64,000 nt of DNA from Minisyncoccota bacterium. Its GTDB lineage: Bacteria; Patescibacteriota; Minisyncoccia; Phycocordibacterales; PALSA-1337. Below, piece after piece: positions 1,571 to 44,247 of the stretch (position 1 is the first letter of the stretch; every line of letters begins with the position of its first letter). The position numbers and the translations under genes are program-made. The notes below the pieces were generated by a model, which saw nothing but the letters and a program-made list of their open reading frames with translations, was not told the origin of the DNA and made no database searches. Location of the stretch: assembly GCA_041671485.1 (NCBI GenBank), contig JBAZBL010000006.1, positions 6,539 through 70,538 of the forward strand. Reading direction: 5' to 3'.

Positions 1571-3343
1571 TTGTCTGCTAAAATAGTATCAATGTTTGTC
1601 GAAGATACTCAACTTTATAAATTTATTCTCGATTCTGGTCTTGTCTCAAAGGAAGATCTCGATTTGGCCAAGAAAGAATCCGAGGAAAAGAACAAACACC
1701 TAGGTGATATTTTGGTTGCCCAAGGCAAGATTGGTGCTGACAACTTGCGACGTATGCAAGCATATACTCTAGGCATTCCTTTTGTTGATCTCAAAGATAA
1801 GAAAATTCCTTTTGATACACTTTCCCTCATACCAGAGCCAATAGCAAGAACGCACAATATAGTTGCTTTCAAAAAAACAGATACATCCCTAGAAGTGGCA
1901 ATGCTCGATGTCAATGATCTTTCTGCAATTGACTTTATAAAGAAAAAGGTTCGCCTCAAGATATTGGCTCGACTTACGGACTCTGATTCGATCAAAGAAG
2001 CTCTTGTTCAATATCAAAAGAGTTTGAAAGCGGAATTTGGAGATATTATACAAAAGGAAACAGAATCACTTCAGATGATATCAGAAAATAAAGGGAAAGA
2101 TGCTTCTTCACCTGAAGATCTGAAGAAAATAGCAGAGGATTTGCCGGTAGTTCGTATAGTAGATACTCTCATCAAGCATGCAATAATACAAAATGCTTCT
2201 GATATCCACATAGAGTCAATGGAAGAACAAGTACTTGTTCGATATAGGATAGACGGACTTTTGCATGATGCCATGATGCTTCCCAAGCAGGCAGGTCCAT
2301 CTATAACTGCACGTATCAAGGTGCTTTCAAACTTGAAACTCGATGAAAAGCGTTTACCACAAGATGGACGTTTCAAAGTTGATATGAATAAAGAGAAAGT
2401 ATCATTTCGTGTTTCTATATTGCCTACATATTATGGAGAAAAGACTGTTATGCGCTTATTGCGTGATAATATATCTGGTTTTACATTGGAATCTCTAAAT
2501 TTCCACGGAGAAGGATTGGATAGGATTCATAAAGCACTAAAGAATACAACAGGTATGATATTGACTACTGGACCAACCGGCTCTGGCAAGACCACAACTT
2601 TGTATACAATGTTGGACATATTGAATACAATAGATGTCAATATTTCTACGATAGAAGACCCTATAGAATACCAATTGGCAAGGATCAATCAGACACAGGT
2701 TCGTCCAGAAATAGGATTTTCATTTGCTCAAGGTATCCGTACTCTAGTCCGACAAGATCCAGATATAATAATGGTTGGTGAAATAAGAGACAATGAAACT
2801 GCCGCTCTCGCAGTCAATGCTTCACTTACAGGACACCTTGTCCTTTCTACATTACATACAAATTCTGCCGCAGGCGCTATACCTCGTTTGCTCGATATGA
2901 AAGTAGAGCCATTTCTCCTTGTTTCTACACTCGATATTGTTATTGGTCAACGTCTCGTACGCAGACTCACTGATACAAAAGAAAAATACAAATTATCAAA
3001 GGCTGAATTTGCACAATTGGAAAAGATAATTGATAAAGATCATGTTCTTTCTACATTGAAGGAAGACAAAATAATCAAACCAAGCGATTCTTGGGATGAT
3101 ATTCCTTTCTGGAGGGCAGTACCAGCCGGAGATGATGATGGTTTCAAGACCCGCGTTGGTATACATGAAGTTCTCCAGATGACACAAACTATCAAAGATC
3201 TCATAATGAAAAATGCAACAGCAAATGATATAGAAATACAAGCCAAGAAAGAAGGAATGTTGACTATGCTCGAAGACGGTATTTACAAATGCGTTGCAGG
3301 TATGACGACCATAGAAGAAGTATTGAGAGTTGTGACTGAATAA
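1571..3343 (+). CDS. pilB: Type IV pilus assembly ATPase PilB (GspE family)
   Basis: 590 aa. Walker A GPTGSGKTT, GspE N-domain, Asp box and His box are present. pilC follows directly. Confidence 0.9.
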   Translation: MSAKIVSMFVEDTQLYKFILDSGLVSKEDLDLAKKESEEKNKHLGDILVAQGKIGADNLRRMQAYTLGIPFVDLKDKKIPFDTLSLIPEPIARTHNIVAFKKTDTSLEVAMLDVNDLSAIDFIKKKVRLKILARLTDSDSIKEALVQYQKSLKAEFGDIIQKETESLQMISENKGKDASSPEDLKKIAEDLPVVRIVDTLIKHAIIQNASDIHIESMEEQVLVRYRIDGLLHDAMMLPKQAGPSITARIKVLSNLKLDEKRLPQDGRFKVDMNKEKVSFRVSILPTYYGEKTVMRLLRDNISGFTLESLNFHGEGLDRIHKALKNTTGMILTTGPTGSGKTTTLYTMLDILNTIDVNISTIEDPIEYQLARINQTQVRPEIGFSFAQGIRTLVRQDPDIIMVGEIRDNETAALAVNASLTGHLVLSTLHTNSAAGAIPRLLDMKVEPFLLVSTLDIVIGQRLVRRLTDTKEKYKLSKAEFAQLEKIIDKDHVLSTLKEDKIIKPSDSWDDIPFWRAVPAGDDDGFKTRVGIHEVLQMTQTIKDLIMKNATANDIEIQAKKEGMLTMLEDGIYKCVAGMTTIEEVLRVVTE

Positions 3344-3392
3344 TCTCAAATTTAAAGCTAATCCGCCGATAGGCAAATCAAATCTTATAAAT

Positions 3393-4613
3393 ATGGCACA
3401 CTTTGTATTCAAAGCAAAAAAAAGAGATGGTGAAATATATGAAGGTGAGCAAAATGCCACTGATCGATTTGAACTTTATAAACTCATACGAGAAGATGGC
3501 GGAGAGATAATATCTGTAAAAGAAAAAGGAGAAAAAGGCCGTATAATCAAAAACCTTTCAGCAATAAAATTATTTAATAGGGTAAAGACTATTGAAAAGA
3601 TCAATTTTGCACGGAATCTTGGTTCAATGCTCGAAGCGGGCCTTGCTCTATCTAGAGCCATATCTGTTTTGGAAAGACAGACAAACAATAAATTCTTTTC
3701 AAAAATAATCAATAACGTCAATACAGAGATCCGTAAAGGCACAACTTTTTCGGATTCATTGGCAAAACATCCAAAAGTATTTTCTCAATTGTTTATTTCG
3801 ATGGTTCATGCAGGAGAACAGTCTGGAACATTGGCAGAATCATTGAAAGTGGTATCTATACAGATGAACAATTCTTATACTCTCGAAAGGAGAGTGAGAG
3901 GTGCTCTCATCTATCCATCAATAATAGTTTTCATAATGGTTCTCATCGCTATCCTCATGTTTTTATTTGTTGTGCCAACACTTTTGAAAACATTTACAGA
4001 AATGAATGTCACATTACCTCTAACAACAAGGATTGTACTTGGTATAAGTGAAGCTTTTCAGAATTATGGCTTATTGATTCTCATTGCTTTCTTGGCCATA
4101 TCAGGCGGGCTTTATTGGTTTTCAAAACAATATATAGGCAAAAAGATTATACATTTGGGAATATTGAAAATACCAATCATTGGTTCTCTAGTGCAGGAGG
4201 TAAATGCGGCGCGTACAGCAAGAACATTGTCATCACTTCTAAAGGCCGGTGTTCCAGTCGTAGAATCAGTAAGTATCACTTCGGAAGTTGTGCAAAATAT
4301 ATATTTCAAAGCAGTTTTATGCAAAGCAGAAGAAACAATAAAAAAAGGTGAATTGATGTCACAAATATTCAATGAAAATTCAAAACTTTATCCTGTATTT
4401 ATGGCTGAAATGATGAGCGTTGGTGAAGAGACAGGACAGATTGCAGAGACTCTCATGAATGTAGCAACATATTATGAAAATGATGTTGAACAAAAAACAA
4501 AAGATATGTCTACGATTATCGAACCAGTACTCATGGTTATCATTGCAAGTGCGGTAGGATTCTTCGCAATATCTATGATATCTCCAATGTATTCATTGGT
4601 AGATGCAATATAA
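3393..4613 (+). CDS. pilC: Type IV pilus platform protein PilC (GspF family)
   Basis: 406 aa with two T2SS-F domains and three TM segments. Directly downstream of pilB. Confidence 0.9.
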   Translation: MAHFVFKAKKRDGEIYEGEQNATDRFELYKLIREDGGEIISVKEKGEKGRIIKNLSAIKLFNRVKTIEKINFARNLGSMLEAGLALSRAISVLERQTNNKFFSKIINNVNTEIRKGTTFSDSLAKHPKVFSQLFISMVHAGEQSGTLAESLKVVSIQMNNSYTLERRVRGALIYPSIIVFIMVLIAILMFLFVVPTLLKTFTEMNVTLPLTTRIVLGISEAFQNYGLLILIAFLAISGGLYWFSKQYIGKKIIHLGILKIPIIGSLVQEVNAARTARTLSSLLKAGVPVVESVSITSEVVQNIYFKAVLCKAEETIKKGELMSQIFNENSKLYPVFMAEMMSVGEETGQIAETLMNVATYYENDVEQKTKDMSTIIEPVLMVIIASAVGFFAISMISPMYSLVDAI

Positions 4614-6385
4614 TGAAAAAAGGATTTACTCTAGTTGAAGTGCTCGTCGGTTCTGCTGTTTTTGTGGTAGTAGCTATAGCGGCATATGGTGCTTATGCTG
4701 GCGTATTCAAACTAGCAAATCTAAATCAGATGAAAGTTATTGCTGTGCAACTAGCCAATGAACAGTTTGAAATTGCAAGGAATATGACATATGACGATAT
4801 TGGTATAGTGAACGGTATACCAAATGGCACTTTACAGGGTACACAAACACTTACAAGAGCTGGAATGACATTTACTGTTACTAAGATTGTGCGCAATATT
4901 GATTTGCCTACTGACGGACTCATAGGTGGTACACCAAATGATCTTACGCCAGCTGATAATAAATTGATGCAAATAACTGTATCCTGTGCATCCTGCCAGA
5001 ATTTTGGACCCATAGTTTTGTCTGGTCAGATTGCACCAAAAAATGTTGAAGCAGTTTCTACAAATGGTTCCTTGAGAATACAAGTTCTCGATGCAAGTGG
5101 AAATGGAGTTCCTAGTGCAACAGTACGTATAGAATATACAGCTACAACAAGCCCTGTAATAATAAATGATACAACAGATAATAGTGGAATATTGCAGATC
5201 ATAGACATTCCACCCGCTACAGCGGCCTACAATATATATATATCCAAATCAGGATATTCTAGTGATCGTACTTATGCACCTACTCCTCAAAATCCAAATC
5301 CAGACAAACCACCAGCTACGGTTGCTGCACAACAGTTGACTCAAATAAGTTTTGTTATTGATGAATTGAGCAAGCTTTCTTTCAGTAGTGTTACACCATC
5401 ATGTGAAATTGTTCCAAATTTTGATTTTAGTCTAAAGGGTGACAGATTGATAGGTCAAGAATTATCAAGATATTATGTCAATGTTTCAACTAATTCTTCT
5501 GGTATATTAAATATGGATCCTATAGAATGGGATTCCTATACAGTTACACCCAACGATGGTGCTTATGATCTTGCTGGTATCAATCCACTAAATCCTATAA
5601 GTTTAAACCCTGGTAGTACTCAATCAGTGCAATTGATAGCAATTCCTCAAAATACCAATAGTTTACTCTTTACGATCAAGGATAGTTCTACTGACCTACC
5701 ACTATCTGGTGTACTTGTTAAATTATATAGATCTGGGTCTTTGATAGGATCCAAAACTACTGGACAGGGTCATTTGGATCAAGCTGATTGGTCAGGTGGT
5801 GGAGGGCAGGTAGGATTTGTTGATTCAACAAAATATTGGAGTACAGATGGCAATATTGATACTTCATCTGGAGGAAATATTCTCTTGAGAAAAATATTTG
5901 AAAATTATAGTTCAAATGGAATGCTAGAATCATCTACTTTCAATACTGGTACATCTAGTAATTTCTACAATATATCTTGGAGTCCTGGTATACAACCATT
6001 AGTTACTGGACAGGATAGCGCGCGCTTGCAATTTGCTACAAGTCCATCTTCTACACCAGCAATATGGAATTTCTTTGGTCCAGATGGTACAGCGACAACT
6101 TATTATGTAAGTCCAGAATCACCAATCAACAATATACATAGTGGTGATCAATATGCACGTTATCGTGTATATCTTTCAACTATTACAGCGACATCAACAC
6201 CAAATATATCAAATATTTCTTTTACATATACATCCGATTGTATACCTCCTGGACAGGTCATATTTTCGGGTCTATCTAGTGGTACATATACAATAGAAGT
6301 ATCAAAAAGTGGATACTCTACATATTCGAGAGAAATATATCTGGAAAGTTCATGGCAAGAAGAGCAAGTCCTTCTTGGACCATAA
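4613..6385 (+). CDS. Giant prepilin-type protein (590 aa) with carboxypeptidase-regulatory-like beta-sandwich repeats
   Basis: N-terminus MKKGFTLVEVLVGSAVFVVVAIA matches the class III prepilin cleavage/methylation motif G|FTLVE. The C-terminal part has repeats such as RIQVLDASGNGVPSATVRIEY and SGTYTIEVSKSGYSTYS (CarboxypepD_reg-like). Confidence 0.7.
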   Translation: MKKGFTLVEVLVGSAVFVVVAIAAYGAYAGVFKLANLNQMKVIAVQLANEQFEIARNMTYDDIGIVNGIPNGTLQGTQTLTRAGMTFTVTKIVRNIDLPTDGLIGGTPNDLTPADNKLMQITVSCASCQNFGPIVLSGQIAPKNVEAVSTNGSLRIQVLDASGNGVPSATVRIEYTATTSPVIINDTTDNSGILQIIDIPPATAAYNIYISKSGYSSDRTYAPTPQNPNPDKPPATVAAQQLTQISFVIDELSKLSFSSVTPSCEIVPNFDFSLKGDRLIGQELSRYYVNVSTNSSGILNMDPIEWDSYTVTPNDGAYDLAGINPLNPISLNPGSTQSVQLIAIPQNTNSLLFTIKDSSTDLPLSGVLVKLYRSGSLIGSKTTGQGHLDQADWSGGGGQVGFVDSTKYWSTDGNIDTSSGGNILLRKIFENYSSNGMLESSTFNTGTSSNFYNISWSPGIQPLVTGQDSARLQFATSPSSTPAIWNFFGPDGTATTYYVSPESPINNIHSGDQYARYRVYLSTITATSTPNISNISFTYTSDCIPPGQVIFSGLSSGTYTIEVSKSGYSTYSREIYLESSWQEEQVLLGP

Positions 6386-6394
6386 TATAAAAAA

Positions 6395-7024
6395 ATGAAG
6401 TATAAACAATATTATAATAAAAATTATGGCATGACTCTTGTAGAAGTATTGGTTGCTCTTGCTATATTTGTAGTTATTATGGGTGCAGTTATTACATTTC
6501 AGATAAATGTATTTTCATATGAACGTACTGCTTCTGGATCTTTCATAACTGTTCAAGATGCACAAACTATATTGAAAGTTATGGGTAAAGAATTGCGTAT
6601 GGCTTCACAAGGAGGTGATGGTTCATATGCCATACAGGGAGCGAGCACAAGCACTGTTACTTTCTTTGCTGATATCAATAATGATAATAAAAAAGAAAAA
6701 GTTAAGTATTATTTTTCGAAAAGTACTTCATCTATACTAAAGACGACTACTTTACCAACAGGAAGTCCTGCGACATATAGTAATATAAACACTTCTACGA
6801 CTACTATTATGGTGAATGTTCGTAATGCTACATCAACACCAATGTTTGAATATTTCGATTCAGACTATAATGGTAGTGGAATAGCTTTGACACAACCAGT
6901 TGTAAATACTTCAATACGTTTGATCAGGGTCAATATTACATTGGATACAGATCCAAATAAACTACCAGAACCGAGAACATATTCAACACAAATAACACTC
7001 CGTAATCTAAAAGATAATTTATGA
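6395..7024 (+). CDS. Prepilin-type minor pilin
   Basis: 209 aa. GMTLVEVLVALAIFVVIMGAV N-terminal methylation motif. Confidence 0.7.
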   Translation: MKYKQYYNKNYGMTLVEVLVALAIFVVIMGAVITFQINVFSYERTASGSFITVQDAQTILKVMGKELRMASQGGDGSYAIQGASTSTVTFFADINNDNKKEKVKYYFSKSTSSILKTTTLPTGSPATYSNINTSTTTIMVNVRNATSTPMFEYFDSDYNGSGIALTQPVVNTSIRLIRVNITLDTDPNKLPEPRTYSTQITLRNLKDNL

Positions 7025-8457
7025 TTAGAATATATAATAAAGGAGATATTCTCGTTTCGGTTTTAGTCTTTTCTGCTATAGCAATTACTATCACTATAGG
7101 ACTTGTAAATTGGGGTTCTATATTATTGAAAAGTGTTCGTACTTTGGCAGATAAAGGACAAGCATTACAAATTGCCGAGGCCGGAATTGATTATTATCGA
7201 TGGCATCTAGCTCATATGCCAGAAGATTTCATGGATGGTACAGGACAAACTGGACCATATATTCATGAATTCAAAGATAAAGATGGCAATCTAATAGGTA
7301 CATATACTCTTACTATAACTCCTCCATCAATCGGTTCAACTGTTGTAACTATTGTCTCCAAAGGAGCGCTCAATTCAAATCCGAATATTACAAGAAGTAT
7401 CAAAGCTATATTGGCAATACCTTCTTGGGCTCAATATGCTAGTGTAGCAAATGATAATATGCGTTTTGGTTCTGGCACAGTAATTTATGGACCAGTACAT
7501 TCGAATAAAGGTATTCATTTCGATGGTATAACATATGGATTGATGTCGAGTGCTCTCACAACATATGTAGATCCCGATTATGGAGCCAATCGTTGGGCCG
7601 TTTATACGCTTACTAGTCCTTCTGATCCAAACCCTCCAACACCACTACCTTTGAAACCAAATATATTTACTGCAGGCCGTAAAATATCTGTACCAGCCGT
7701 TGATTTTACTGGGCTTACTGCCAATCTGGCTCAATTGAGAACTTTGGCCCAATCAAATGGTATTTATTTGAGTCAATCTCAATACAAAGGGAAATCAGCG
7801 CTAGGTTATCATATTACACTCAAAACCAATGATACTTTCGATGTTCGTGTAGTAACTGCTATAAATAATCCACCAAACAGTAGTTGTTGGAATCTTCTCA
7901 ATCAAAATCAGTGGAGTACATGGAGTATCAAAACCGAGCAATCAGCAGTCAACTATCCAATACCTACAAATGGTATTATCTTTGTGGAAGATAATGTTTG
8001 GGTAGACGGACAGATAAATACTGCAAGATTGACCATAGCAGCTGGGAAATTGCCAGATCCAGGAGCATCAAAATGGTCTAATATCATAATTAATAATGAT
8101 ATTTTGTATACAAATCATGATGGTAATGATGTGATCGGTCTTATTGCTCAAGGAGATGTAAATATCGGTCTTTCTAGTGCAAATAGTCTCGATATTGACG
8201 CAGCTCTTGTTGCACAAAATGGTCGTGTAGGGAGGAATTATTATTCATATTATTGCGGTTCTTCTTATATTCGATCAGATATAAATCTGTATGGCATGAT
8301 CGCTACAAATCAGCGATATGGTTTTGCATATACAGACGATACTGGTTATCGTGATAGGAATATATCTTATGATCCAAATCTCCTATATAGTCCACCACCG
8401 TCATTTCCACTCACATCGAGCTATTATTCTACATTATCTTGGCAAGAAATTAACTAG
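7021..8457 (+). CDS. PilX-like minor pilin / pilus-associated protein with N-terminal TM helix
   Basis: 478 aa. Hydrophobic N-terminus ILVSVLVFSAIAITITIGLV. Last gene of the pilB-pilC-pseudopilin operon. Confidence 0.5.
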   Translation: MIRIYNKGDILVSVLVFSAIAITITIGLVNWGSILLKSVRTLADKGQALQIAEAGIDYYRWHLAHMPEDFMDGTGQTGPYIHEFKDKDGNLIGTYTLTITPPSIGSTVVTIVSKGALNSNPNITRSIKAILAIPSWAQYASVANDNMRFGSGTVIYGPVHSNKGIHFDGITYGLMSSALTTYVDPDYGANRWAVYTLTSPSDPNPPTPLPLKPNIFTAGRKISVPAVDFTGLTANLAQLRTLAQSNGIYLSQSQYKGKSALGYHITLKTNDTFDVRVVTAINNPPNSSCWNLLNQNQWSTWSIKTEQSAVNYPIPTNGIIFVEDNVWVDGQINTARLTIAAGKLPDPGASKWSNIIINNDILYTNHDGNDVIGLIAQGDVNIGLSSANSLDIDAALVAQNGRVGRNYYSYYCGSSYIRSDINLYGMIATNQRYGFAYTDDTGYRDRNISYDPNLLYSPPPSFPLTSSYYSTLSWQEIN

Positions 8458-10806: not shown

Positions 10807-10836
10807 ACATAAATGATAACATTTTGTCGTTAAATT

Positions 10837-10853
10837 ACGAGGTCCGACCTAGT
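10837..10853. promoter_or_regulatory. 17-bp palindrome ACGAGGTCCGACCTAGT, copy 2 of 4; lies between divergent HIT and recJ, 30 bp upstream of the recJ start
   Basis: Second copy of the 17-mer also found at 1411, 31111 and 34141. Confidence 0.4.
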
Positions 10854-13296: not shown

Positions 13297-13443
13297 CCCG
13301 AGGCCCGCCTTCGGCGGGGTAGGCCTCGGGAGTGGATTTTATCATTTCTTCAGCAGAATTTTATCAGGATTTTATCTCATTGTGATATCGTGCAGGTTGT
13401 GGAGGTTTCGTTGCGCAGGTCTACCCTGCGCAACGAAACCTCC
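13297..13443 (+). repeat. Composite repeat element, copy 1: GC hairpin (ggtaggcctcgg type), 42-nt AT-rich motif with three ATTTTATC repeats, TGaTAT box, then a REP hairpin
   Basis: Same layout at 17004-17157 and 42798-42916 (reverse strand). The 42-nt motif lies at 13337-13378 and the REP unit cgcaggtctaccctgcg at 13414-13430. The element ends 10 nt before the comEC start. Confidence 0.7.
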
Positions 13444-13453
13444 GCAAAAACCT

Positions 13454-14827
13454 ATGAAGAAAGGCGTGTTTATATTCTGGTTTATTATCATCGGAATCAC
13501 AGTTTTCCGTCTGGTATTTTCTTATGCATCAAATATTTCTATTACAAATGATTGTATGAAAGAGAAGGTGACTGGAATGGGTATGATTACCGAAGAACCG
13601 GAGCGCAAAGAAACTGGGCAAATCCTAATAATCAAAGTAGATGAATTATTAACAAATGAAGCAGATAAATGTTCTAGTGATATATTGATTCGTGCAAAGA
13701 CAAAATTATATCCACGATTTTCTTTTGGAGATCACATCAAATTTATTGGTAATTTATCTGAACCATATAATTTCTCTAGTAATGATGGTAGAACATTCGA
13801 TTATCGTAATTATCTAGCCAAAGACGACATTTATTTTGAGATCAAAAGTGCAATAGTAGAGAAGATCAATGAAGAAAAATCATTTTCAATAAAAGGATCA
13901 CTATATAAGATAAAAAGAAGATTTGTTTCAAATATAGAGCAAGTATTGGGAGAACCTCATTCTGCATTTGCTGCTGGTTTGGTGGTTGGTGAGAAGGGTT
14001 CGATAGGGAAGAGTTTACTCGATGATTTTAGGATTACAGGATTGATACATATCGTCGTTCTGTCTGGCTTCAATATCACAATCATTGCCGATGCTATCAG
14101 GAAACTTCTGTCGAGATTGCCTAGAATGTGGGGTATTTTGCTTGGTGGCCTAGGTATTATTCTCTTTGGAATAATGGTTGGTGGTGGAGCTACGGTTATA
14201 CGTTCTTGTGTTATGGCGAGCATTGCTCTATCTGCCGAATTGGTTAGGCGAGATTATAGTGTTGTACGTGCACTTGTATTTGCAGGAATGATAATGCTCA
14301 TACAAAATCCTATGATCTTATTTCACGATCCATCTTTCCAGCTTTCTTTCTTGGCAACACTGGGTTTGGTCATTCTCGCAAGGCCGATAGAAGATAGACT
14401 GACGTTTTTGCCAGAGAAGTTTGGTTTTAGGAGTATAATATCTGCTACATTTGCTACTCAAATATTTGTATCACCATTTATTCTCTATATGATGGGTCAA
14501 TTGTCTATTATTGGTGTTGTAGTCAATGTCTTGGTCTTGCCATTTATACCTATTACTATGCTAGCTGTATTTCTCGTAGGTATTTCTGGCTTTATTTTTG
14601 AACCCATATCACAATTTTTCAGCTATTTCGCATACGCCCTTCTCTCTTATGAACTCAATATGGTCGAATATTTCGCAAAAATACCCTTTGCCTCATTCAA
14701 AATCCCCGCATTTTCATTCTGGTGGGTTGTGGGGTTTTATCTGGGGTTTTCAATAATCTTTTACTATTTTTATCGGAGAAATAGAGTGAGGGCAGAGAAT
14801 AATATGCTCATTACCTCGACCCATTGA
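13454..14827 (+). CDS. comEC: ComEC/Rec2 competence membrane channel (N-terminal DUF4131 + competence domains, no MBL domain)
   Basis: 457 aa and polytopic. The ORF-track start at 13184 only translates the upstream repeats. ATG 13454 begins MKKGVFIFWFIIIGITVF. The Competence-domain core GLIHIVVLSGFNITIIADAI is present. Confidence 0.75.
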   Translation: MKKGVFIFWFIIIGITVFRLVFSYASNISITNDCMKEKVTGMGMITEEPERKETGQILIIKVDELLTNEADKCSSDILIRAKTKLYPRFSFGDHIKFIGNLSEPYNFSSNDGRTFDYRNYLAKDDIYFEIKSAIVEKINEEKSFSIKGSLYKIKRRFVSNIEQVLGEPHSAFAAGLVVGEKGSIGKSLLDDFRITGLIHIVVLSGFNITIIADAIRKLLSRLPRMWGILLGGLGIILFGIMVGGGATVIRSCVMASIALSAELVRRDYSVVRALVFAGMIMLIQNPMILFHDPSFQLSFLATLGLVILARPIEDRLTFLPEKFGFRSIISATFATQIFVSPFILYMMGQLSIIGVVVNVLVLPFIPITMLAVFLVGISGFIFEPISQFFSYFAYALLSYELNMVEYFAKIPFASFKIPAFSFWWVVGFYLGFSIIFYYFYRRNRVRAENNMLITSTH

Positions 14828-16981: not shown

Positions 16982-17003
16982 AGTGGTATTGTAACATATG
17001 TTT

Positions 17004-17157
17004 TTCCCGATGCCTACTCTCGGAGGTCGTCGATTTTATCATTTCTTCAGCGAAATTTTATCAGGATTTTATCTCGATATGATATGGTGCAAGTTGCGGA
17101 GGCCTTGTTGCGCAGGGTAGACCTACGCACAACGTGCGTAGGTCTACCCTGCGCAAC
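17004..17157 (+). repeat. Composite repeat element, copy 2: degenerate GC hairpin, 42-nt ATTTTATC motif, TGaTAT box, then a REP doublet
   Basis: 42-nt motif at 17034-17075. REP doublet cgcagggtagacctacg (17111-17127) and cgtaggtctaccctgcg (17136-17152). Ends 10 nt before the ATG at 17168. Confidence 0.7.
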
Positions 17158-17167: not shown

Positions 17168-18094
17168 ATGCTCAAACGAATAATTATTTTCATAGTAATC
17201 TTTGGTCTTTTATCTGGTGCTGTTTTCTACATATATCATCTAGAAAACCGCGCGCAATTGCTCGAAATATTCGTTTTTAATATTAAAAGTGGTAATTCTA
17301 TATTCATTCGCACCCCAAATGATAAAAGGATACTCGTAAATGGTGGTTCGAATTCGCAAGTCTTGAGAGAAATAACAAAGATTTTGCCTTTTTATTCACG
17401 TCGTATAGATATGGTTATTGCTACAAATACAGAAGGCAAGAATGTTGCGGGGCTGATTGACATTCTAGGTCGTTATAAAGTCGATCGAGTCATATTATCA
17501 GCAATTACTTTGCAATCCATAGGTCTTTCGACAAGTACTGATCTCATATATGAGACTTTTTTGGATTCGATAAATATTCCAAAAAGGGAAGTTAGTGCTG
17601 GAGAATCGATAGTGTTGGACAAATCAAATGGGAATGATGATTTTGGAGAAAATGATATAGTTGCCGATATTTTATTTCCAGTATCAGCCGACACATTTTC
17701 CTATTCAAAGACAAGTGATCCAGAAATTGTTCTAAATATTAATTTTGGCTCAACAAATATATTGCTAGTCGGTAACACCACGCCAAAGATTCAAAAGTTC
17801 ATCACTTCGACCGCTGAATTGGACAGGATTATGAATAATACCAATGTATTGGTAATTTCTAATAATGCTTCGAAGACAAATTTGGCAAAACAAATGGTTG
17901 ATGAATTTAAGCCCAAATATGTAATCTATTCAAAGTTATTATCAAGTGGCAAGACGGCAAATGGTTCAATAGAAAATACCAAAGATGATCCACTTCTCGG
18001 CATTCCCGAAGCAAATAGATATAATATAAAAGAAAAAGGATCCATAAGGATCATTTCTGATGGCTCTATTGTAAGAGTCGAAGAGTCTAGATGA
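17168..18094 (+). CDS. ComEC C-terminal-like metallo-beta-lactamase-fold domain protein (degenerate; HxHxDH absent)
   Basis: 308 aa. VFNIKSGNSIFIRTPNDKRILVNGG resembles the ComEC MBL region LDVGQGDAILI...ILIDGG. The His motif is replaced by ATNTEGKNVAG. The ORF-track start at 17084 translates the REP. Confidence 0.5.
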   Translation: MLKRIIIFIVIFGLLSGAVFYIYHLENRAQLLEIFVFNIKSGNSIFIRTPNDKRILVNGGSNSQVLREITKILPFYSRRIDMVIATNTEGKNVAGLIDILGRYKVDRVILSAITLQSIGLSTSTDLIYETFLDSINIPKREVSAGESIVLDKSNGNDDFGENDIVADILFPVSADTFSYSKTSDPEIVLNINFGSTNILLVGNTTPKIQKFITSTAELDRIMNNTNVLVISNNASKTNLAKQMVDEFKPKYVIYSKLLSSGKTANGSIENTKDDPLLGIPEANRYNIKEKGSIRIISDGSIVRVEESR

Positions 18095-18984: not shown

Positions 18985-19094
18985 GGATGTATGGCTGTTG
19001 CGGAGGTGCGAGGTCGCACCTCCACAAAAAGAGTAGCAAATTTTGGACGATTGTGATATATTCTGACACAGAGATAGAGAAAGGGATAGTAATT

Positions 19095-28514: not shown

Positions 28515-28608
28515 CTTATAATCAATTTAAGGTCACATTTTGTGACCTTAAAACAGATATAATTAATAAAATTGGGTTTTGGTAGATTTTATCAAAAATT
28601 TAGGAGTA

Positions 28609-28650
28609 TTTTATCATTTCTTCAGCCAAATTTTATTTGGATTTTATCTC
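28609..28650 (+). promoter_or_regulatory. Third copy of the 42-nt AT-rich ATTTTATC-triplet motif, without flanking REPs; lies 23 nt upstream of ORF 28673
   Basis: ttttatcatttcttcagccaaattttatttggattttatctc. Followed by the palindrome ttggtca gtaa tgaccaa. Confidence 0.5.
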
Positions 28651-28672
28651 TCTCTGATACAGTTGGTCAGTA

Positions 28673-29068
28673 ATGACCAATAAATGGCGTAATATAGTTG
28701 GGAATGCAAGAGAAAAATACAAGAAAATGCAACCTGTTGCATGTCCAGCCTTTGGTGGTGAACTAGTGTATTTCAATAAACATGGATTCAATCATCTCAT
28801 AAGAAAAGGTCGAAGATTTCGCAAAATAGATGTCCAAATTGATCGCATTCAATTAATTGGAACAGCTATCGATACCCTGCAAAGATCTTCTACGGTTTAT
28901 CGTTATCGTAAGGTAAATACTGTAAAATCAGTAATGCAGTTCTGGGCATTCGAAGACGATCTCATAATAGATAATAAAAAAGTATCCATAATAGTCGTTG
29001 TCAGAAAAATGAACAATGGTAAAATTCATTTTTTTAGTATATTCAAGAGAAAACACAAAACCCCCTAA
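28673..29068 (+). CDS. Hypothetical basic protein (131 aa)
   Basis: ORF with the conserved AT-rich motif upstream and a terminator overlapping its stop. No recognisable domain. Confidence 0.45.
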   Translation: MTNKWRNIVGNAREKYKKMQPVACPAFGGELVYFNKHGFNHLIRKGRRFRKIDVQIDRIQLIGTAIDTLQRSSTVYRYRKVNTVKSVMQFWAFEDDLIIDNKKVSIIVVVRKMNNGKIHFFSIFKRKHKTP

Positions 29069-30719: not shown

Positions 30720-31397
30720 TTAGTGTGCTAGAGAAATACCTAAAATTCTTTCAAATCCACTTTTTTGTAGTGTATCAATAGCTTCTTTCATCGTACTACC
30801 GGTAGTGATTACATCATCAATGACAATAATTGGTATTTTATTTTGATTTGTGTCATTTTTGATTTTATCTGCAAATATATCATCCACAGAAAATATTCCC
30901 TTTGCATCTGTCAGTCGGTCAGTACGATCTTTGAGTGTTTGCCGATCGGCATGATGAATACGTCTCAAAAGTTCTTTTTCAATCACAAATCGTTTTTCTG
31001 TATCAAGCCTTGCAATTTCATCGGCCAATAATTCACATTGATTGTATCCACGTTCGTTTTTCCTCCTTTTTGTTATTGGTATAGGGATTATGATTCGTGT
31101 ATTCTCTTTTACGAGGTCGGACCTCGTGATCTCAATAAGCTTGCTATAAAGTGCATAACCACCTATCTCTGTCGCTCGTTTAGACTTCTTGTATTTGATA
31201 TTCCATATCAATCTTGTGACACGATCATCTTTATAGGCAAAGGTGGATCTCATATTTGTAAAAGGAGTTTCTGGAGCGCGAGGTAATATCTCCAATGCCT
31301 GTTCTGGCGATAGAGAAAACAACTCTTTTTCTGATTTTGTAGAAGGAAAAAGAGCTTCTAGCATTGTCTTATATATGGTAGTCAGAAAAGTTATCAT
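30720..31397 (-). CDS. comF: ComF-family competence protein (phosphoribosyltransferase fold)
   Basis: C-terminal PRTase motif IIVIDDVITTGSTM. Conserved ComF region IIIPIPITKRRKNERGYNQ. Confidence 0.8.
   Translation of the reverse strand: MITFLTTIYKTMLEALFPSTKSEKELFSLSPEQALEILPRAPETPFTNMRSTFAYKDDRVTRLIWNIKYKKSKRATEIGGYALYSKLIEITRSDLVKENTRIIIPIPITKRRKNERGYNQCELLADEIARLDTEKRFVIEKELLRRIHHADRQTLKDRTDRLTDAKGIFSVDDIFADKIKNDTNQNKIPIIVIDDVITTGSTMKEAIDTLQKSGFERILGISLAH
31111..31127. promoter_or_regulatory. 17-bp palindrome ACGAGGTCGGACCTCGT, copy 3 of 4, the most symmetric copy; lies inside the comF coding region (encodes ITRSDLV)
   Basis: Identical core to the copies at 1411, 10837 and 34141. Confidence 0.35.
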
Positions 31398-31450: not shown

Positions 31451-34141
31451 ATGAAAAAATATTTTGTTATTGTTTTCTCTGCAGTTTTTATCTTTTTGGA
31501 ATTGTATTTTTTGCCGACAGATGCACTTGCACAATGTTCAGGAAGTCCTGATCTTGCAACTCATGCGAGTGAACAGATTGACAGTAGAATAAGCCAAGCA
31601 TCTTCAGGGACTGGTCTCAATTTATTTTCTGATTTTATGTCAACTCTCAATATGACCGGCGCACAACTTGTTTCTCTCACCGATAAACCAAACTCAATGC
31701 AAGAGAACATTGATTCATGGGCAAAGAAGGGAATACCTCTTGATTTTACTGGAGTAGCTACATGGAACGATTGGAATGGATCATCAAATCCTGTTTATCA
31801 GGGCGCGGCTACTCTTATTACACCTAGACATTTTGTAACTGCTACCCACATTAAACTACCCGTTGGAACAAAAGTCACATTTATCAAACCAGATGCGAGT
31901 ACTACTACAAGAATAGTTACTGGTTTTGAGAATATACCAAATAGTGATGTGACTGTAGAGGTGCTTGATAGCGATGTTGATCCCTCCATAAAGTATTACA
32001 AAGTAATAGATATTACAACTTTTTGGAGTCTTCTATCTAAGAATGTTCTTGAAGGGTCTTCAGAAGTTCCAATTGCTGTTTTTAACCAAGGACGACAGCC
32101 TTTTATACATTCCTTGGGTGTAAATTTGGCAAATCCATATAATAAAAATCCATACAATAGTATTCCGCATTATCCAAGTTCTATAAGAGCGAGTTTTAGT
32201 TCTTATGTAGGACCTGGTGATTCTGGTCAACCGGGATTTTTGATTGTTGAAGACACGCCAATACTTCTTTTTGTAAATACAACTAATACTGAAGGGTCAA
32301 ATGTTGGTTCTCGCATTACAGAGATCAATCAAGCTATCAATTCTCTGGGAAGTGGTGGTTATAGCGCAACTCTATATAATTCATCTTGTTTTACAAAATA
32401 CCCGATTACTCCTACTGTCACTTCTATTTTAACAGACGTTGGTTCTATTAGTTGTCTCCAAAATACGCCAACCTGTAGAATGACAATATTTGGTATTGGA
32501 TTCACATCTCAAAATAATACAGTTAAAGTTGGTATATTAGATATTGGTAATATCTCCTCATATAATAATGGTACTGCGATTGATGTTAATATTCCAACTG
32601 ATTTATCTGCTGGTACTTACAATGTTGTGATCTCTAATAGCGAGGGTACATCAAATCCAAAAATATTCATGATGCTAAATAATTCCTCATTTCCATCTAT
32701 CACATCTGTCTCTCCTTCATCTGGTCCAATGGGTTCAACAATCACTCTAATAGGTGCGAATTTCTCAATAAGTGGTACAAATAATATAAAATTTGCACCT
32801 ACTACAGGTTTTAAACCTGAAATTTCTCTTCAATCTACAAATGTAACTCAAAACGGAACTCGTCTTACAGCAACTCTTCCAAACGAAGATTATCCTGTAG
32901 GTACAGTATTTACTATTTGGATTGATAATGCCGAATTTGGCTATAGCGATGAAAATTCATCATATGAGAGAAATCCTAAAACATTTACTGTAGCTTTACC
33001 ACCACCAGTAGTAGAACAAGACACTACTCCTCCTGTTCGAAGTAATGGATTACCATCAAGCACTCTATCAGCCACAACAAATTCTACGAATGTCTCTCTT
33101 AGTACAAATGAATCAGCTGTCTGTCATTGGAGTAGTGGACCAAATAATACTTTTGATCAGATGTCAGGCAGATTTAACAGTTCCAATAATGGAACATCTC
33201 ATTCTGTGAGCGTTACTCTAACTCCTGGTAATTCATATAGTTATTACATAAAGTGTCGTGATCAAGCAGAGAATACAAATACTCAAGATTTTCCTATATT
33301 ATTTGCTGTTGCTAGTTTGCCAGCCGAAGAAAACCCTCCTTCCGATACTACTCCTCCAAATATCTCTATCAATTCTCCATTAAATAATGAATCGTTCGTT
33401 GAGGGTACAAAGACTATCAGTGTTTCTACTTCTGATAATGTGGGTGTAGTCGGTGTTCAATATTATCTAGATGGGACAAGGCTAGATTCCGAAAAGACGA
33501 CAGCACCTTGGACTATTACAAAAACTTTTACTCCTGGTACATACAGTATATATGCAATTGCTCGTGATGTGGCTGGTAATCGCAAGACATCAAATACTAT
33601 TATATTTAATGTAACTAAAAAACCAGTTGTTATTGTCCAACAACAACCAATCATTAATCCTCCAATTATAAATCCTATAAACACTCAACCACCAGTCATG
33701 CCTATTCAAGAAAATGATGAAGTTCCATTCAAGGCCGTTGCTACAGAGATCAATCGCAACCTTGCCCTAAATGATGAAGGTGAAGATGTTCTCCTATTAC
33801 AGAAAGTTCTTAATAAGCTTGGCTATGAAGTTGCTACCAATGGTCCTGGCTCTATTGGTAAAGAAACGACATATTTTGACAATAATACAAAAGAAGCACT
33901 TGCGAAGTATCAATCTGATCATTCTGAAGAAGGGATAGTATCTACTGGCATACTAGATAATGTAACTATGGCTATAATAAATGTCGAAGCAGAAAAGTTG
34001 ATCAAATACACAGAAGATGAAGCAACTTCTACAGATCAGATTCTGGATAAAAGAGTAGAAATAACATCAGTAGCGACTTTCTTTCTGTATATATTTGATA
34101 CATTAAGATTATGGGGATCTAGTATCATCAACTTGTTTTGA
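31451..34141 (+). CDS. Large secreted surface protein (896 aa) with Ig-like repeats and a C-terminal peptidoglycan-binding domain
   Basis: Signal peptide, Ser/Thr/Asn-rich repeats, Big-like modules (DTTPPNISINSP...YAIARDVAGN). PG_binding_1-like LNDEGEDVLLLQKVLNKLGY...EALAKYQ. Confidence 0.7.
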   Translation: MKKYFVIVFSAVFIFLELYFLPTDALAQCSGSPDLATHASEQIDSRISQASSGTGLNLFSDFMSTLNMTGAQLVSLTDKPNSMQENIDSWAKKGIPLDFTGVATWNDWNGSSNPVYQGAATLITPRHFVTATHIKLPVGTKVTFIKPDASTTTRIVTGFENIPNSDVTVEVLDSDVDPSIKYYKVIDITTFWSLLSKNVLEGSSEVPIAVFNQGRQPFIHSLGVNLANPYNKNPYNSIPHYPSSIRASFSSYVGPGDSGQPGFLIVEDTPILLFVNTTNTEGSNVGSRITEINQAINSLGSGGYSATLYNSSCFTKYPITPTVTSILTDVGSISCLQNTPTCRMTIFGIGFTSQNNTVKVGILDIGNISSYNNGTAIDVNIPTDLSAGTYNVVISNSEGTSNPKIFMMLNNSSFPSITSVSPSSGPMGSTITLIGANFSISGTNNIKFAPTTGFKPEISLQSTNVTQNGTRLTATLPNEDYPVGTVFTIWIDNAEFGYSDENSSYERNPKTFTVALPPPVVEQDTTPPVRSNGLPSSTLSATTNSTNVSLSTNESAVCHWSSGPNNTFDQMSGRFNSSNNGTSHSVSVTLTPGNSYSYYIKCRDQAENTNTQDFPILFAVASLPAEENPPSDTTPPNISINSPLNNESFVEGTKTISVSTSDNVGVVGVQYYLDGTRLDSEKTTAPWTITKTFTPGTYSIYAIARDVAGNRKTSNTIIFNVTKKPVVIVQQQPIINPPIINPINTQPPVMPIQENDEVPFKAVATEINRNLALNDEGEDVLLLQKVLNKLGYEVATNGPGSIGKETTYFDNNTKEALAKYQSDHSEEGIVSTGILDNVTMAIINVEAEKLIKYTEDEATSTDQILDKRVEITSVATFFLYIFDTLRLWGSSIINLF

Positions 34142-34157
34142 CGAGGTCTGACCTAGT
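34141..34157. promoter_or_regulatory. 17-bp palindrome ACGAGGTCTGACCTAGT, copy 4 of 4; lies 45 bp upstream of pilM, flanked by gtttt / aaaac
   Basis: Shares the core with the other three copies. Confidence 0.4.
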
Positions 34158-34201: not shown

Positions 34202-35299
34202 ATGTCGTTTTTCTCTTCATTTTTCAAGAAAGAAGTCAGCGTTCTAGGACTAGATATAGGTTCTTCGGCTATCAAAATAGTACAGATCAAGAAAAAACGG
34301 GGAAGAGCCGTTCTAGAGACTTATGGCGAATTGGCACTTGGTCCTTATGCAGGAGTAGAGATAGGCAGAGCAACTAGTCTACTAACAGAGAAGATAATAG
34401 AAGCAGTAAAAGATATATTACGTGAAGCAAAGACAACTACAGTATCGTGCGGTTCAGCATTACCACTATCTTCTAGTCTCATAACCTTTATCACAATTCC
34501 TGCTGTTTCAGAAAAACAGATTGCAGATGTTATAGCACTAGAAGCACGTAAATATATACCAGTACCACTTAGTGAAGTCATGATTGACTATTCTATAGTT
34601 CCACGCGAAGAAGCATATGCTACAGAAGACGAGACGACCAAAACAGAAAAAGCAGGTAGAGACGTACTTGTAATTGCAGTTCACAATGAATATATCAATT
34701 CGTATCAATCAATATTATCAGGCTCTGGTCTTGTGCCTAGCTTTTATGAAATAGAGATTTTCAGTTCGATCCGTGCTGTTATGGACCAAGGTCTTAGTAC
34801 AAGTATGATTCTCGATTTTGGCGCACGTTCTACCAAGCTATATATCGTAGAGCGTGGAATATTGCGTTCATCACATATCATCAATAAAGGCAGTCAAGAT
34901 ATCACTCTTGCATTGTCAAAAGCATTGTCTATATCTATAAGCGAGGCCGAAAACCTAAAGCGTGTCCGTGGTTTGAAAGGTGGACCAGAATACAAAGAGC
35001 TGACAGAGATCATAACTGTAAATCTTGATTATATATTTTACGAGGCAAATGCTACACTTTTGAGCTATCAAAAGAAATATTCCAAGAATGTAAGTAGAGT
35101 CATACTTACAGGTGGTGGAGTTTTACTCCAAGGATTCACTGATTTGGCAAAGGTCGGTTTCCAAACAGAAGTTTTGTATGCAAATCCATTTGCAAAACTA
35201 GATACACCAGCATTCCTGGGAGAAGAATTTGCAAAAGCAGGACCAGAATTTGCAGTTGCTATAGGTATTGCATTACGTAGATTGTCGGAAGTTGAATAA
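34202..35299 (+). CDS. pilM: Type IV pilus assembly protein PilM (actin-like ATPase)
   Basis: 365 aa. LGLDIGSSAIKIVQI N-terminus with an FtsA/PilM fold. Followed by membrane proteins in pilN/O/P positions. Confidence 0.8.
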   Translation: MSFFSSFFKKEVSVLGLDIGSSAIKIVQIKKKRGRAVLETYGELALGPYAGVEIGRATSLLTEKIIEAVKDILREAKTTTVSCGSALPLSSSLITFITIPAVSEKQIADVIALEARKYIPVPLSEVMIDYSIVPREEAYATEDETTKTEKAGRDVLVIAVHNEYINSYQSILSGSGLVPSFYEIEIFSSIRAVMDQGLSTSMILDFGARSTKLYIVERGILRSSHIINKGSQDITLALSKALSISISEAENLKRVRGLKGGPEYKELTEIITVNLDYIFYEANATLLSYQKKYSKNVSRVILTGGGVLLQGFTDLAKVGFQTEVLYANPFAKLDTPAFLGEEFAKAGPEFAVAIGIALRRLSEVE

Positions 35300-35349
35300 G
35301 TTTACACAGGGTAGACCTGCGTATATACGCAGGTCTACCCTGTGTAAAC
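35300..35349. repeat. REP doublet (REPIN-like) placed just after the pilM stop
   Basis: gtttacacagggtagacctgcg tatata cgcaggtctaccctgtgtaaac, a 50-nt perfect palindrome. Confidence 0.8.
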
Positions 35350-35396
35350 TTATTCACAGCGTAAAAAGACTTTATATCTGATATAATACACAAAGT

Positions 35397-36071
35397 ATGG
35401 AGACAAAATTCCAGACTTCTTTTATTCCAAGAAAGCCACTACCTTCTATAGGTGGTGTTGGTGCAAATGCAGGTGTCGGACTTGCACCACATAGGCCGAG
35501 ACATTCAAATAGTGTTTTCTTCAATCTCGCTTTATTGCTGTTTATCATATCTCTTGGTGCAGGAGGAGGAATGTTGGCACTCAAAAGTATGACTCTATCT
35601 TCGCAAGAAGGTCTCAAGACACAACTTTCCGAGAGAAGAAAACAGTTCAACCCTGATCTTATCGAAGAATTAAAACGCATAAATGTCAAAATAGACAATT
35701 CGAAACAAGTCGTAGAGAATCACCTCATATTATCCAATATATTTGATGTGATAGGAAGATTGACCATAGAAAAAGTCAGATTTACAAATATGGATCTTTC
35801 AGTTGATAGAGAACATTCAAATGATATAAAAGTATCTCTAAATGGTTATGGCACGAGTCTTGCTGCTGTAGCATTCCAATCTGATGTCTTGAATCAGCTT
35901 CAAGAATATGGTCTGCGCAAAATCGTAAAAAATCCAATGATTTCAAATCCAACATTGGATACTACTGGTAATGTCAATTTTGGATTTTCAGCATCTATAG
36001 ATCCTACAAGCCTCCGTTATACTGATGCATCAATATCTTCTACAACAGGAGATCAATACAACAATGAATAA
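35397..36071 (+). CDS. PilN-like membrane protein (hypothetical)
   Basis: 224 aa with a single TM helix (LALLLFIISLGAGGGMLAL), in the pilN position. Confidence 0.45.
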   Translation: METKFQTSFIPRKPLPSIGGVGANAGVGLAPHRPRHSNSVFFNLALLLFIISLGAGGGMLALKSMTLSSQEGLKTQLSERRKQFNPDLIEELKRINVKIDNSKQVVENHLILSNIFDVIGRLTIEKVRFTNMDLSVDREHSNDIKVSLNGYGTSLAAVAFQSDVLNQLQEYGLRKIVKNPMISNPTLDTTGNVNFGFSASIDPTSLRYTDASISSTTGDQYNNE

Positions 36072-36645
36072 AAACGTTATAGCAACAATTTTATTTGTAC
36101 TTGCAATCGGGATTTATTTCTCATTTACTAGTAATAAATGGACAGAGATAAAGGCAATACGTGTTGTAAACAATCAATATTCCGAAGCCATTGCAAATTC
36201 TGACAAACTGATCAAGGTTCGTGATAAAGTCCTAAAAGAATACAATGCCTTGTCTGCCGAGGACAGAGATCGTTTGGACAAGATGATACCAAATACAGTA
36301 GATAATATTCGTCTCATCATTGATCTAAATAATGTTGCTTCAAGGCGTGGTATATCACTCAAAAATGTCAAAGCTGATACTTCGGAAGCTATTGGTGGAA
36401 CAGTTTCAAACTCTATTCCTAGTTCTATTGGCAATCGTGGAGAATATATTCCAACCCCTGTTCTTGATGAGGTCAATATATCATTTAGTGTTAGTGCATC
36501 ATATGAAAAATTTATAGATTTTATGCGTGATCTAGAGATCAATTTGCGAGTAATGGACTTGACCCATCTCTCTGTATCTGTAAATGAAAGTGGTATATAT
36601 GATTATGGTGTAGAGTTGTCAACTTATTGGTTGCGTCAACAATAA
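36064..36645 (+). CDS. PilO-like membrane protein (hypothetical)
   Basis: N-terminal TM helix then a coiled-coil region. Start overlaps the upstream stop (ATGAATAA). Confidence 0.45.
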   Translation: MNKNVIATILFVLAIGIYFSFTSNKWTEIKAIRVVNNQYSEAIANSDKLIKVRDKVLKEYNALSAEDRDRLDKMIPNTVDNIRLIIDLNNVASRRGISLKNVKADTSEAIGGTVSNSIPSSIGNRGEYIPTPVLDEVNISFSVSASYEKFIDFMRDLEINLRVMDLTHLSVSVNESGIYDYGVELSTYWLRQQ

Positions 36646-36647
36646 AA

Positions 36648-36944: not shown

Positions 36945-37001
36945 TAGATATTGTTCAAAGAATTACATTTATTCATGAATAATGTCTCATGAATCTATAA
37001 T

Positions 37002-38717: not shown

Positions 38718-38736
38718 TTTGTGATACAATCTATAT

Positions 38737-39147: not shown

Positions 39148-39166
39148 TATAATATCAATAAAAACT

Positions 39167-40225: not shown

Positions 40226-40234
40226 AAAATTATT

Positions 40235-41446: not shown

Positions 41447-41510
41447 TTTGTTTACCATTTTTGATTTTTTATCTTTGATTTTTGATTTATATTGTTATCC
41501 CCAATTGCTC

Positions 41511-41541: not shown

Positions 41542-41609
41542 ATGTCTTGAACAACCTTGTTTAAGGTCTGTTATTAAAGGTTTTATTATTAATAATTATT
41601 AAATAAAAT

Positions 41610-42792: not shown

Positions 42793-42797
42793 TAAAT

Positions 42798-44245: not shown

Positions 44246-44247
44246 CA

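Follow-up and report, generated by a model that had tools for sequence, protein, structure and literature searches.

An 11-bp-phased repeat array ahead of two comEC genes and a REP-associated transposase gene in a Patescibacteria genome: a probable ancestral regulon promoter

Introduction

Pho boxes and the sites of PhoP in Bacillus subtilis consist of 11-bp direct repeats whose proximal unit lies about 10 bp from the -10, with no -35, and they are bound head-to-tail by dimers of OmpR-family proteins. A unit of this type comprises a conserved core of ~7 nt and a spacer of ~4 nt, and two to several units stand together. Another layout is known from the 5' region of the IS200 transposase gene tnpA, in which a terminator-like hairpin, the promoter and a stem-loop in the 5' untranslated region (UTR) that limits translation follow one another. 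Here we describe an element that can be compared with both, found in a 64,000-nt stretch of the genome of a Minisyncoccota bacterium (contig JBAZBL010000006.1 of assembly GCA_041671485.1, positions 6,539 to 70,538; hereafter the window, whose own numbering is used throughout). The element consists of a tandem array of 11-nt units followed by a predicted extended -10 promoter. [quoted passage not shown] We argue that it is probably a regulon promoter inherited within the lineage and not a mobile cassette.

The arrangement of a RAYT gene with its REPs is a known system, also termed 'REPtron', and Patescibacteria are absent from the phyla listed for REPs of the GTAG type (PMC3733652). DNA uptake by Patescibacteria is thought to be central to their reduced, nucleotide-scavenging lifestyle, and the single genetic system at hand relies on natural transformation (PMC10633639). 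In the literature we found no description of comEC regulation or of promoter architecture in Patescibacteria.

Results

A phased array ahead of four genes

A 42-nt AT-rich motif occurred four times in the window with at most 3 mismatches, at 13337-13378, 17034-17075 and 28609-28650 on the plus strand and at 42837-42878 on the minus strand. Across 100 dinucleotide-preserving shuffles there were 0 matches (0 expected by chance), and every copy (4/4) points toward a start codon just downstream. Three of the loci sit between REP-type palindromes (those of the copies at 13337-13378, 17034-17075 and 42837-42878), and direct reading together with alignment confirmed the order of parts that a preliminary description of this DNA had given for them: GC palindrome, 42-mer, TGaTAT(C/G)GT box, CGCAGG-type palindrome and start codon. 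The ATGs at 13454, 17168 and 42792 lie 6, 10 and 4 nt beyond the downstream REP hairpin. The copy at 28609-28650, upstream of open reading frame (ORF) 28673, was confirmed as well and belongs to an array without REPs.

The same description had seen three direct repeats in the 42-mer. The motif itself is real, but the conserved block is about 55 nt long, reaches through the -10 and comprises four tandem 11-nt units with the core yTTnAkC, in the window ATTTTATC or TTCTTCAGC. Divided into frames of 11 nt, the sequence of the element is TTTTATCATTT / CTTCAGCnAAA / TTTTATCAGGA / TTTTATCTCnn. Among 19 arrays from 11 genomes the self-match was 0.60 at lag 11 (z 17.7) and 0.62 at lag 22 (z 14.3), compared with 0.31 in shuffles, and lags 10 and 12 gave no signal. 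A loose regular expression (TTyATy-N8-11-TANNNT) was too unspecific for searching, and we used instead a position weight matrix (PWM) built from 49 units, with four consecutive units required, to scan 1.46 Mb on both strands. The unit consensus of this matrix is (A/G)wwTCTTTATC, in which T6 and T7 reach 0.97, A9 0.87 and C11 0.83. The scan returned 22 array clusters (24 sites before clustering), while reversed-sequence controls returned 0. At 20 of the 24 listed sites TANNNT begins 9-10 nt past the last unit; relative to the predicted transcription start, this unit occupies about -27 to -22. Sequence variants of the unit were TTTTATC, TCTTCAkC, TTTTGAGC and TCTTGATC.

Array 1, ahead of comEC-N, occupies 13333-13376 on the plus strand with the four units TGGATTTTATC ATTTCTTCAGC AGAATTTTATC AGGATTTTATC (unit-PWM score 33.1); the hexamer of its predicted extended -10, TGaTATCGT at 13383-13391, begins 9 nt past the last unit and has the format of the other promoters of the genome. 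Array 2, with four units at 17030-17073 on the plus strand (score 33.4), matches array 1 at 93% identity across 44 nt and precedes TGaTATGGT at 17080-17088, the predicted extended -10 of comEC-C. On the minus strand, the four units of array 3 (42839-42882, score 39.9) are followed by TGaTATGGT at 42824-42832, the predicted extended -10 of the RAYT gene; a TGATATnGT box was also present at five other RAYT genes. The array without REPs, array 4, has six units at 28583-28648 on the plus strand (score 29.8), and its predicted extended -10, TGaTACAGT at 28655-28663, lies 9 nt before the ATG at 28673.

The TTATC of the unit was also considered as a DnaA box. This reading was rejected: the units are without the CACA half, and a protein consisting only of the DnaA C-terminal domain, encoded next to the locus in some relatives, has no homologue in the window or at the other loci. 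This small protein is encoded between HIT and RecJ in the related locus L085 (2771-3223, minus strand) and at locus P0026.

Promoter format of the genome

Stretches of 60 nt ahead of 57 window genes were examined. At 17 of these genes, TGnTANNNT ends 5-9 nt before the ATG (at distances of 6, 7 and 9 nt in 11, 4 and 2 genes), compared with 0-2 genes at equally wide control offsets, and Shine-Dalgarno cores were essentially absent. The genome therefore appears to run on extended -10 promoters with leaderless mRNAs as the default. Gene starts that exemplify this format, with the box 6-7 nt ahead of the ATG of first genes, are those at 8504, 10883, 16981 (minus strand), 29306, 42962, 46664 and 48785.

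The boxes at all four array loci fit TGn followed by TANNNT. Array 4 and the REP-free arrays of relatives obey the rule for the distance between -10 and ATG, and copies 1-3 obey it once the REP is discounted. The earlier proposal that TGaTATGGT is an extended -10 thus agrees with the format of the genome, and the position of the box is conserved in relatives. A classical -35/-10 scan called no sigma-70 site at the arrays, which is consistent with a promoter that has no -35. A similar arrangement had been suggested before the small ORF 19095 (ORF 19096 in our numbering). The hairpin and TGTGATATATT found there are a terminator-like hairpin and an ordinary TGnTANNNT promoter with no array, and this locus was rejected as a member of the family.

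Arrays in related genomes

The preliminary description had proposed a wider search for the 42-mer. Outside the window, a scan with the exact pattern ATCATTTCTTCAGCNNAATTTTAT gave 1 match in JGI metagenomes (locus L001) and 0 among the species representatives of GTDB. The sequence as such therefore appears to be genome-specific, and the search was moved to homologous loci of relatives, whose PilC is 56-79% and whose ComEC is ~60% identical to that of the window. At L001 PilC is 73% identical and the synteny pilC - X(-) - array - pilin is the same. The array there is REP-free and carries an insertion of exactly 11 nt, by which the phase is kept, and the ATG of a PemK/MazF-like gene follows 6 nt past TATGGT. 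The 130-aa protein of L001 and the 131-aa protein behind array 4 are not homologous and represent two different toxin-like families.

It had also been proposed to check the regions upstream of comEC in relatives, and there the element was indeed present, at both comEC genes in L085, L087 and L089 and at comEC-N in L082. In L085 both genes stand behind a 66-nt array of six units, TTTCTTAGGCG AATTTTGAGCG AAAATTAGGCG TTTTTTGATTA CTTTTTGAGCG TTTCTTTATC, identical between the two but for one position; 9-10 nt further on comes TAAAAT (comEC-N) or TAGACT (comEC-C), then 7 nt and the ATG. Both comEC genes of L087 have ATCTTCATCATTTCTTCAGC...TTTCTTTATC arrays that are clearly homologous to those of the window. 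The comEC-N gene of L082 has GTTATC/GTAATC units, TGATATCGT and a hairpin other than REP1 (see below) between -10 and ATG. The comEC arrays of L085, L087 and L089 are REP-free, and the comEC ATG there lies 6-8 nt past the -10. Upstream of comEC-C we further observed a very long GC-rich palindrome in L088 (~7000-7100, stem ~35-40 bp by eye), where there is no recognisable array, and a short GC-rich inverted repeat, CGCCGCG...CGCGGCG, in L082 (8150-8230).

Arrays were also found at RAYT promoters (L016, L005, L012), at PemK-like genes (L001, L008, L015), at LPD3-like genes (the window and L015) and at a PBECR3 nuclease-like gene (L038). The recurrence of the same few gene families behind arrays in different genomes and loci is the signature of a regulon. 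In four genomes the arrays closely resemble one another when the 44 nt up to the end of the last unit are compared (86-93% identity in the window, 97% in L085, 93% in L015, 81% in L087), whereas identity is 50-65% between arrays at orthologous comEC sites of different genomes. The core -10 and the discriminator of L085 and L089 are specific to each gene and conserved between orthologues (TAAAAT at comEC-N, TAGACT at comEC-C), while the arrays upstream of them differ. From these sequences, either the arrays might track a changing trans-acting factor, or gene conversion might homogenise them, or both.

REP palindromes and the RAYT gene

The RAYT gene (42220-42792, minus strand) encodes a Y1 tyrosine transposase of 190 aa (Pfam Y1_Tnp, E=2e-8, 34.7 bits against a cut-off of 23 bits); its match to NCBIfam REP_Tyr_transpos has E=2e-10 and is below the 80-bit cut-off. 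The palindrome REP1, CGCAGGGTAGACCTGCG, is present at 13 window sites, singly or in inverted pairs, with 26 matches counting both strands against ~0.04 expected. The RAYT gene has a copy on either side, in the form of a hairpin at 42797-42821 (minus strand) whose start would be near the predicted +1 of the RAYT mRNA and of an inverted pair directly 3' of the gene at 42185-42229. In REP1 the GTAG sits in the loop, CGCAGG-GTAGA-CCTGCG, and not at the 5' foot of the stem. The upstream hairpin of the GGTAGGCCTCGG type is a second palindrome of the same architecture, REP2 (CCGAGGGTAGGCCTCGG), which in the window is limited to the three composite loci. From their sequence and placement, these GC palindromes correspond to the known REP/RAYT arrangement, here in Patescibacteria.

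A GC hairpin had been described as the first part of all three composite loci, which holds for two of them. A REP2-like palindrome lies upstream of array 1 at 13297-13330 on the plus strand (arms 13297-13305 and 13322-13330; 3 mismatches to the REP2 sequence), and at 42886-42916 two overlapping inverted REP2 copies, forming a perfect 15-bp palindrome, separate array 3 from the pilin gene 42962, which runs divergently. Upstream of array 2 there is a single degenerate REP2 copy on the minus strand (17007-17023, 2 mismatches), one arm that makes a poor hairpin. Downstream of the promoters, the 5' UTR of comEC-N contains from about the predicted +1 a hairpin with a 23-bp stem (13397-13447) that bears the REP1 core, 13414-13430, at its tip, and that of comEC-C contains an inverted REP1 pair forming a hairpin with a 24-bp stem (17107-17157). 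Predicted folding energies of the 5' hairpins were -45.8 kcal/mol (z -10) for comEC-N, -54.4 (z -9.3) for comEC-C and -12.1 for RAYT, and 4-10 A-rich unpaired nt separate each hairpin from the AUG.

RAYT homologues occur in the synteny pilC - RAYT(-) - pilin in at least six relatives; one partial match, in L023, lies ~8 kb away. Each has its own genome-specific palindrome between promoter and ATG, as seen in the 5' flank, which was the side examined in relatives. The REP stands between promoter and ATG at 8/8 RAYT genes, with an upstream copy in at least seven, that of L016 being ~100 nt away. At all eight the REP begins 3-9 nt past the -10, that is, at the predicted +1, and a 5'-terminal REP stem-loop would therefore be ancestral to RAYT mRNAs. 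The comEC promoters of the window share with this class the -10 TGATATnGT together with a REP. Copies 1 and 2 are 82% identical over 101 nt reaching into the REP context and thus look like duplicates or conversion products of each other, which reduces the number of independent REP-array events. REP count, orientation and the junctions with the array differ among the three composite loci, and array 4 and the L001 copy are REP-free. It seems from this pattern that the REPs were acquired secondarily at existing arrays, possibly by conversion from the RAYT promoter or by a targeting like that at the RAYT promoter. The effect of the acquired hairpin might be mRNA stabilisation, loss of leaderless translation, or to serve as a handle for the RAYT.

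Further palindromes were observed in the window. A perfect REP1 lies within the RAYT ORF at 42653-42669. A third REP-like family, ACGAGGTCnGACCTnGT, has four copies (1408-1427, 10834-10853, 31108-31127 and 34138-34157), of which that at 31108-31127 lies within the comF-like ORF 30720-31397 on the minus strand, and it resembles the REP flanking the RAYT gene of L034 (CGAGGTCTGACCTCG). The REP1 at comEC-N (13397-13447) is nested in a longer palindrome, TTGyGGAGG...CCTCCrCAA, and a related palindrome, TTGCGGAGGTGCGAGGTCGCACCTCCACAA at 18997-19028, follows an M50 peptidase gene.

Interpretation of the array

The element is probably an ancestral, lineage-wide regulon promoter with pho-box-like geometry that serves a putative regulator. 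The four to six tandem 11-bp units would lie on one face of the helix, with the last one ending 9-10 bp upstream of a -10 that has no -35. A putative DNA-binding protein would bind the units head-to-tail, from about -22 to -65, and so control RNA polymerase; by geometry it would be a class-II, pho-box-like activator, and repression is also conceivable. In the REP-free versions, with the ATG 6-9 nt past the -10, the transcript would be leaderless. The co-regulated set would comprise the ComEC channel protein, the separate ComEC beta-lactamase-like protein, RAYT and RNase-toxin-like genes of the PemK/MazF, LPD3 and PBECR types, and the arrays within a genome would be kept alike through co-evolution with the factor, gene conversion, or both. 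At the three window arrays with REPs, the RAYT's own repeats on both sides would have been added to this promoter, and the downstream copy would turn a leaderless mRNA into one beginning with a very stable 5' stem-loop, a hairpin that is presumably ancestral at RAYT promoters and appears secondarily acquired by the two comEC promoters. A binding array for a regulator had been named in the preliminary description as its second option, and it is the better supported one, by the strict 11-nt phasing, the fixed spacing to the -10 and the recurrence before five gene families.

The first option of that description was that the RAYT 5' flank had been mobilised with its REPs, so that a unit of the form (REP2)-array-(-10)-(REP1), like a REP doublet forming hairpins (REPIN) or a miniature inverted-repeat transposable element (MITE), was transposed before the comEC genes and delivered promoter and 5'-UTR hairpin there. 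The restriction of REP2 to the composite loci, the presence of REP1 at 3/4 arrays and the position of the REPs at the eight RAYT genes would fit such a cassette, as would the TGATATnGT of the window comEC promoters in place of the TAAAAT or TAGACT of their L085 and L089 orthologues. However, relatives have homologous arrays without REPs at their own orthologous promoters of comEC-N and comEC-C, and array 4 and the L001 copy are likewise REP-free. The window loci also do not show the common ends and junctions at non-homologous sites that mark a REPIN- or MITE-like cassette, given their differing REP numbers, orientations and junction sequences, and the arrays recur before the same gene families across genomes, which fits a regulon rather than random insertion. 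As the origin of the element mobilisation is unsupported, and we consider it distinctly unlikely. Even less can be said for a chance low-complexity sequence, a structured RNA or a small ORF. The region is AT-rich in a genome of 37% GC, and the preliminary description had allowed that the 42-mer might be a low-complexity sequence found at random positions; this is not so, as shown by the shuffles and the reversed-sequence controls. Since no Rfam family matched at the element and the array RNA folded no better than shuffles (z ~0), the idea of an RNA element was dropped, and no consistent reading frame ran across the 42-mer copies. Such an explanation is hardly conceivable.

The main rival is a role that requires no dedicated factor, in which the phased T-tracts form curved DNA or an upstream (UP)-like surface for the alpha subunits of RNA polymerase and thereby boost a promoter that has no -35. 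Each 11-nt unit has a T-rich run, the period is exactly 11, and upstream of the -10 the array spans -22 to -65/-88; nor did the DNA searched yield a regulator gene. The positions outside the tract are nevertheless as conserved as the T-run itself (A9 and C11), the array is confined to few gene families while 16 other TGnTANNNT promoters of the window are array-free, and the unit sequence shifts in concert between genomes, which curvature alone does not require. This explanation is therefore unlikely in our view.

Several observations weigh against the regulon promoter that we prefer. No candidate regulator was found at the loci examined, where the only response regulator, encoded in the pilus cluster, consists of the receiver alone, and tblastn with E. 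coli PhoB gave only receiver-only matches in 1.46 Mb and no OmpR-type DNA-binding domain. The -10 boxes of the window have the TG extension and should be able to act without an activator, and the start ~7 nt downstream of the -10 is predicted from spacing only. Gaps with REP2 coincide with array gaps in 3/3 cases among 39 intergenic gaps (P=4e-4), and the presence of REP1 at three of the four arrays has P=0.014. Concerted evolution is not uniform, with arrays 77% identical in L008 and 59% in L089. Where whole arrays are nearly identical, this exceeds what a degenerate binding site would need, and gene conversion or recent copying alone could account for it. The list of regulon members is also incomplete, the relatives having been sampled as parts of each genome.

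Downstream genes and their surroundings

The comEC-N gene (13454-14827, plus strand) encodes a protein of 457 aa with DUF4131 and Competence channel domains in Pfam, and its N-terminus M(K/R)KGVFIFW is kept in relatives. The comEC-C gene (17168-18094, plus strand) encodes a stand-alone ComEC beta-lactamase-like domain protein of 308 aa with an N-terminal transmembrane helix. It had no Pfam match. A profile of five orthologues matched residues 530-746 of the PDB ComEC 30bt_A with E=9e-12 (E=2.7e-4 in a single-sequence search), and the metal-binding HxHxDH motif looks degenerate in the profile alignment, with TNTEGKN in the window and THPDADH in PDB ComEC. Between the two genes a superoxide dismutase (SOD) gene lies on the opposite strand. 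Six further assemblies share the gene order TIM-PGK-HIT-RecJ-RNaseH-ComEC-(variable)-SOD(-)-310-aa protein-...-S12-S7-EFG, and ComEC homologues of the group are mostly 440-500 aa long, with few of 600-640 aa. The split of comEC is thus old and does not reflect fragmentation. The two genes, which the preliminary description had called fragments, are by conserved synteny, homologue lengths and the ComEC profile match intact and anciently separate.

ORF 28673, behind array 4, encodes an LPD3-like (BECR-fold-like) protein of 131 aa (28673-29068, plus strand; Pfam LPD3, E=1.4e-5, just below the cut-off), and a 41%-identical LPD3-like homologue in L015 is also preceded by an array. A perfect palindrome, TTGGTCAgtaaTGACCAA, at 28663-28680 extends over both the predicted start site and the start codon of this ORF; judged from its position, it may act as an operator in its own right, such as one for autoregulation of the toxin type. 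BECR-type nuclease domains also accompany ComEC elsewhere: the homologue P0005 is a PBECR3-ComEC fusion, a PBECR3 gene of L085 (9598-10065) overlaps the end of comEC-C, and the array-bearing PBECR3 gene of L038 lies at ~12600 on the minus strand.

Divergent genes stand on the two sides of arrays 2 and 3, with SOD(-) and comEC-C around the first (16982-17033) and RAYT(-) and the plus-strand pilin gene around the second (42880-42961), a layout that is kept in relatives, including L001 (2010-2137). Placed in this way, the arrays could act on the promoters of SOD and pilin as well. Genes for DNA uptake are densely packed in the window. Two type IV pilus clusters (1571-8457 and 34202-46635) contain two PilB, two PilC, PilT, PilM, PilO, PilD and several pilins, and there are further the comF-like gene (30720-31397) and recJ; among these DNA-uptake genes only the two comEC genes bear arrays. 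A full-length match to the Rfam LOOT RNA (RF03000) was found at 55160-55275 on the minus strand (72.7 bits against a gathering score of 46.4).

Discussion

A conserved cis-element before both ComEC halves provides a first testable handle on the control of competence genes in Patescibacteria, the candidate phyla radiation (CPR). If RAYT is controlled together with DNA-uptake genes, this would offer a testable hint as to when REP/RAYT systems act, and the predicted leaderless, extended -10 format without Shine-Dalgarno sequences matters for gene calling and expression design. As a tentative extension, which we hold to be possible and rather doubtful, this family of Patescibacteria (Paceibacteria, Taylorbacteria-like) might have a dedicated regulon for incoming DNA. 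A single factor would recognise the 11-bp-phased array and jointly turn on the split ComEC channel, the beta-lactamase-like partner of this channel, a REP-associated single-stranded DNA transposase and small nucleases of the BECR and PemK types. This would tie REP/RAYT activity to DNA uptake, at which time single-stranded DNA is present, and array and factor would co-evolve fast enough for the arrays to change in concert between genomes.

Among known systems, promoters of the Pho box type (PhoB, PhoP) share with the arrays the 11-bp period, the proximal spacing of ~10 bp and the missing -35. The unit yTTnAkC is, however, unrelated to CTGTCAT (PhoB) or TTAACA (PhoP), and the arrays described here have up to six units, are followed by predicted leaderless transcripts and stand before DNA-uptake, transposase and toxin genes rather than phosphate genes. 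By its geometry the array would work like a pho box, but it is not a member of that group. Phased A/T-tract elements such as those of Clostridium perfringens plc and UP elements likewise have helically phased T-runs directly upstream of the core promoter; the arrays differ from them by the conservation of non-T positions, by their restriction to few gene families and by their concerted change between genomes.

The palindromes of the window agree with REP/RAYT systems in that the Y1 gene is flanked by its own GC-rich palindromes, which are scattered intergenically as single copies and inverted pairs, and in that each related genome has its own REP beside its RAYT. They differ in that GTAG is in the loop instead of at the 5' foot of the stem, that the REP stands precisely between -10 and start codon, and that the RAYT promoter shares its array with host competence genes. 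With IS200 tnpA the element would have in common the order hairpin, promoter, hairpin and start codon before a Y1 transposase gene, whereas here the hairpins are REPs common to many loci, there is no Shine-Dalgarno sequence to sequester, and non-transposase genes are also served. The REP part is therefore an already known kind of element, and the array regulon is a new variant of the phased direct-repeat promoter-operator.

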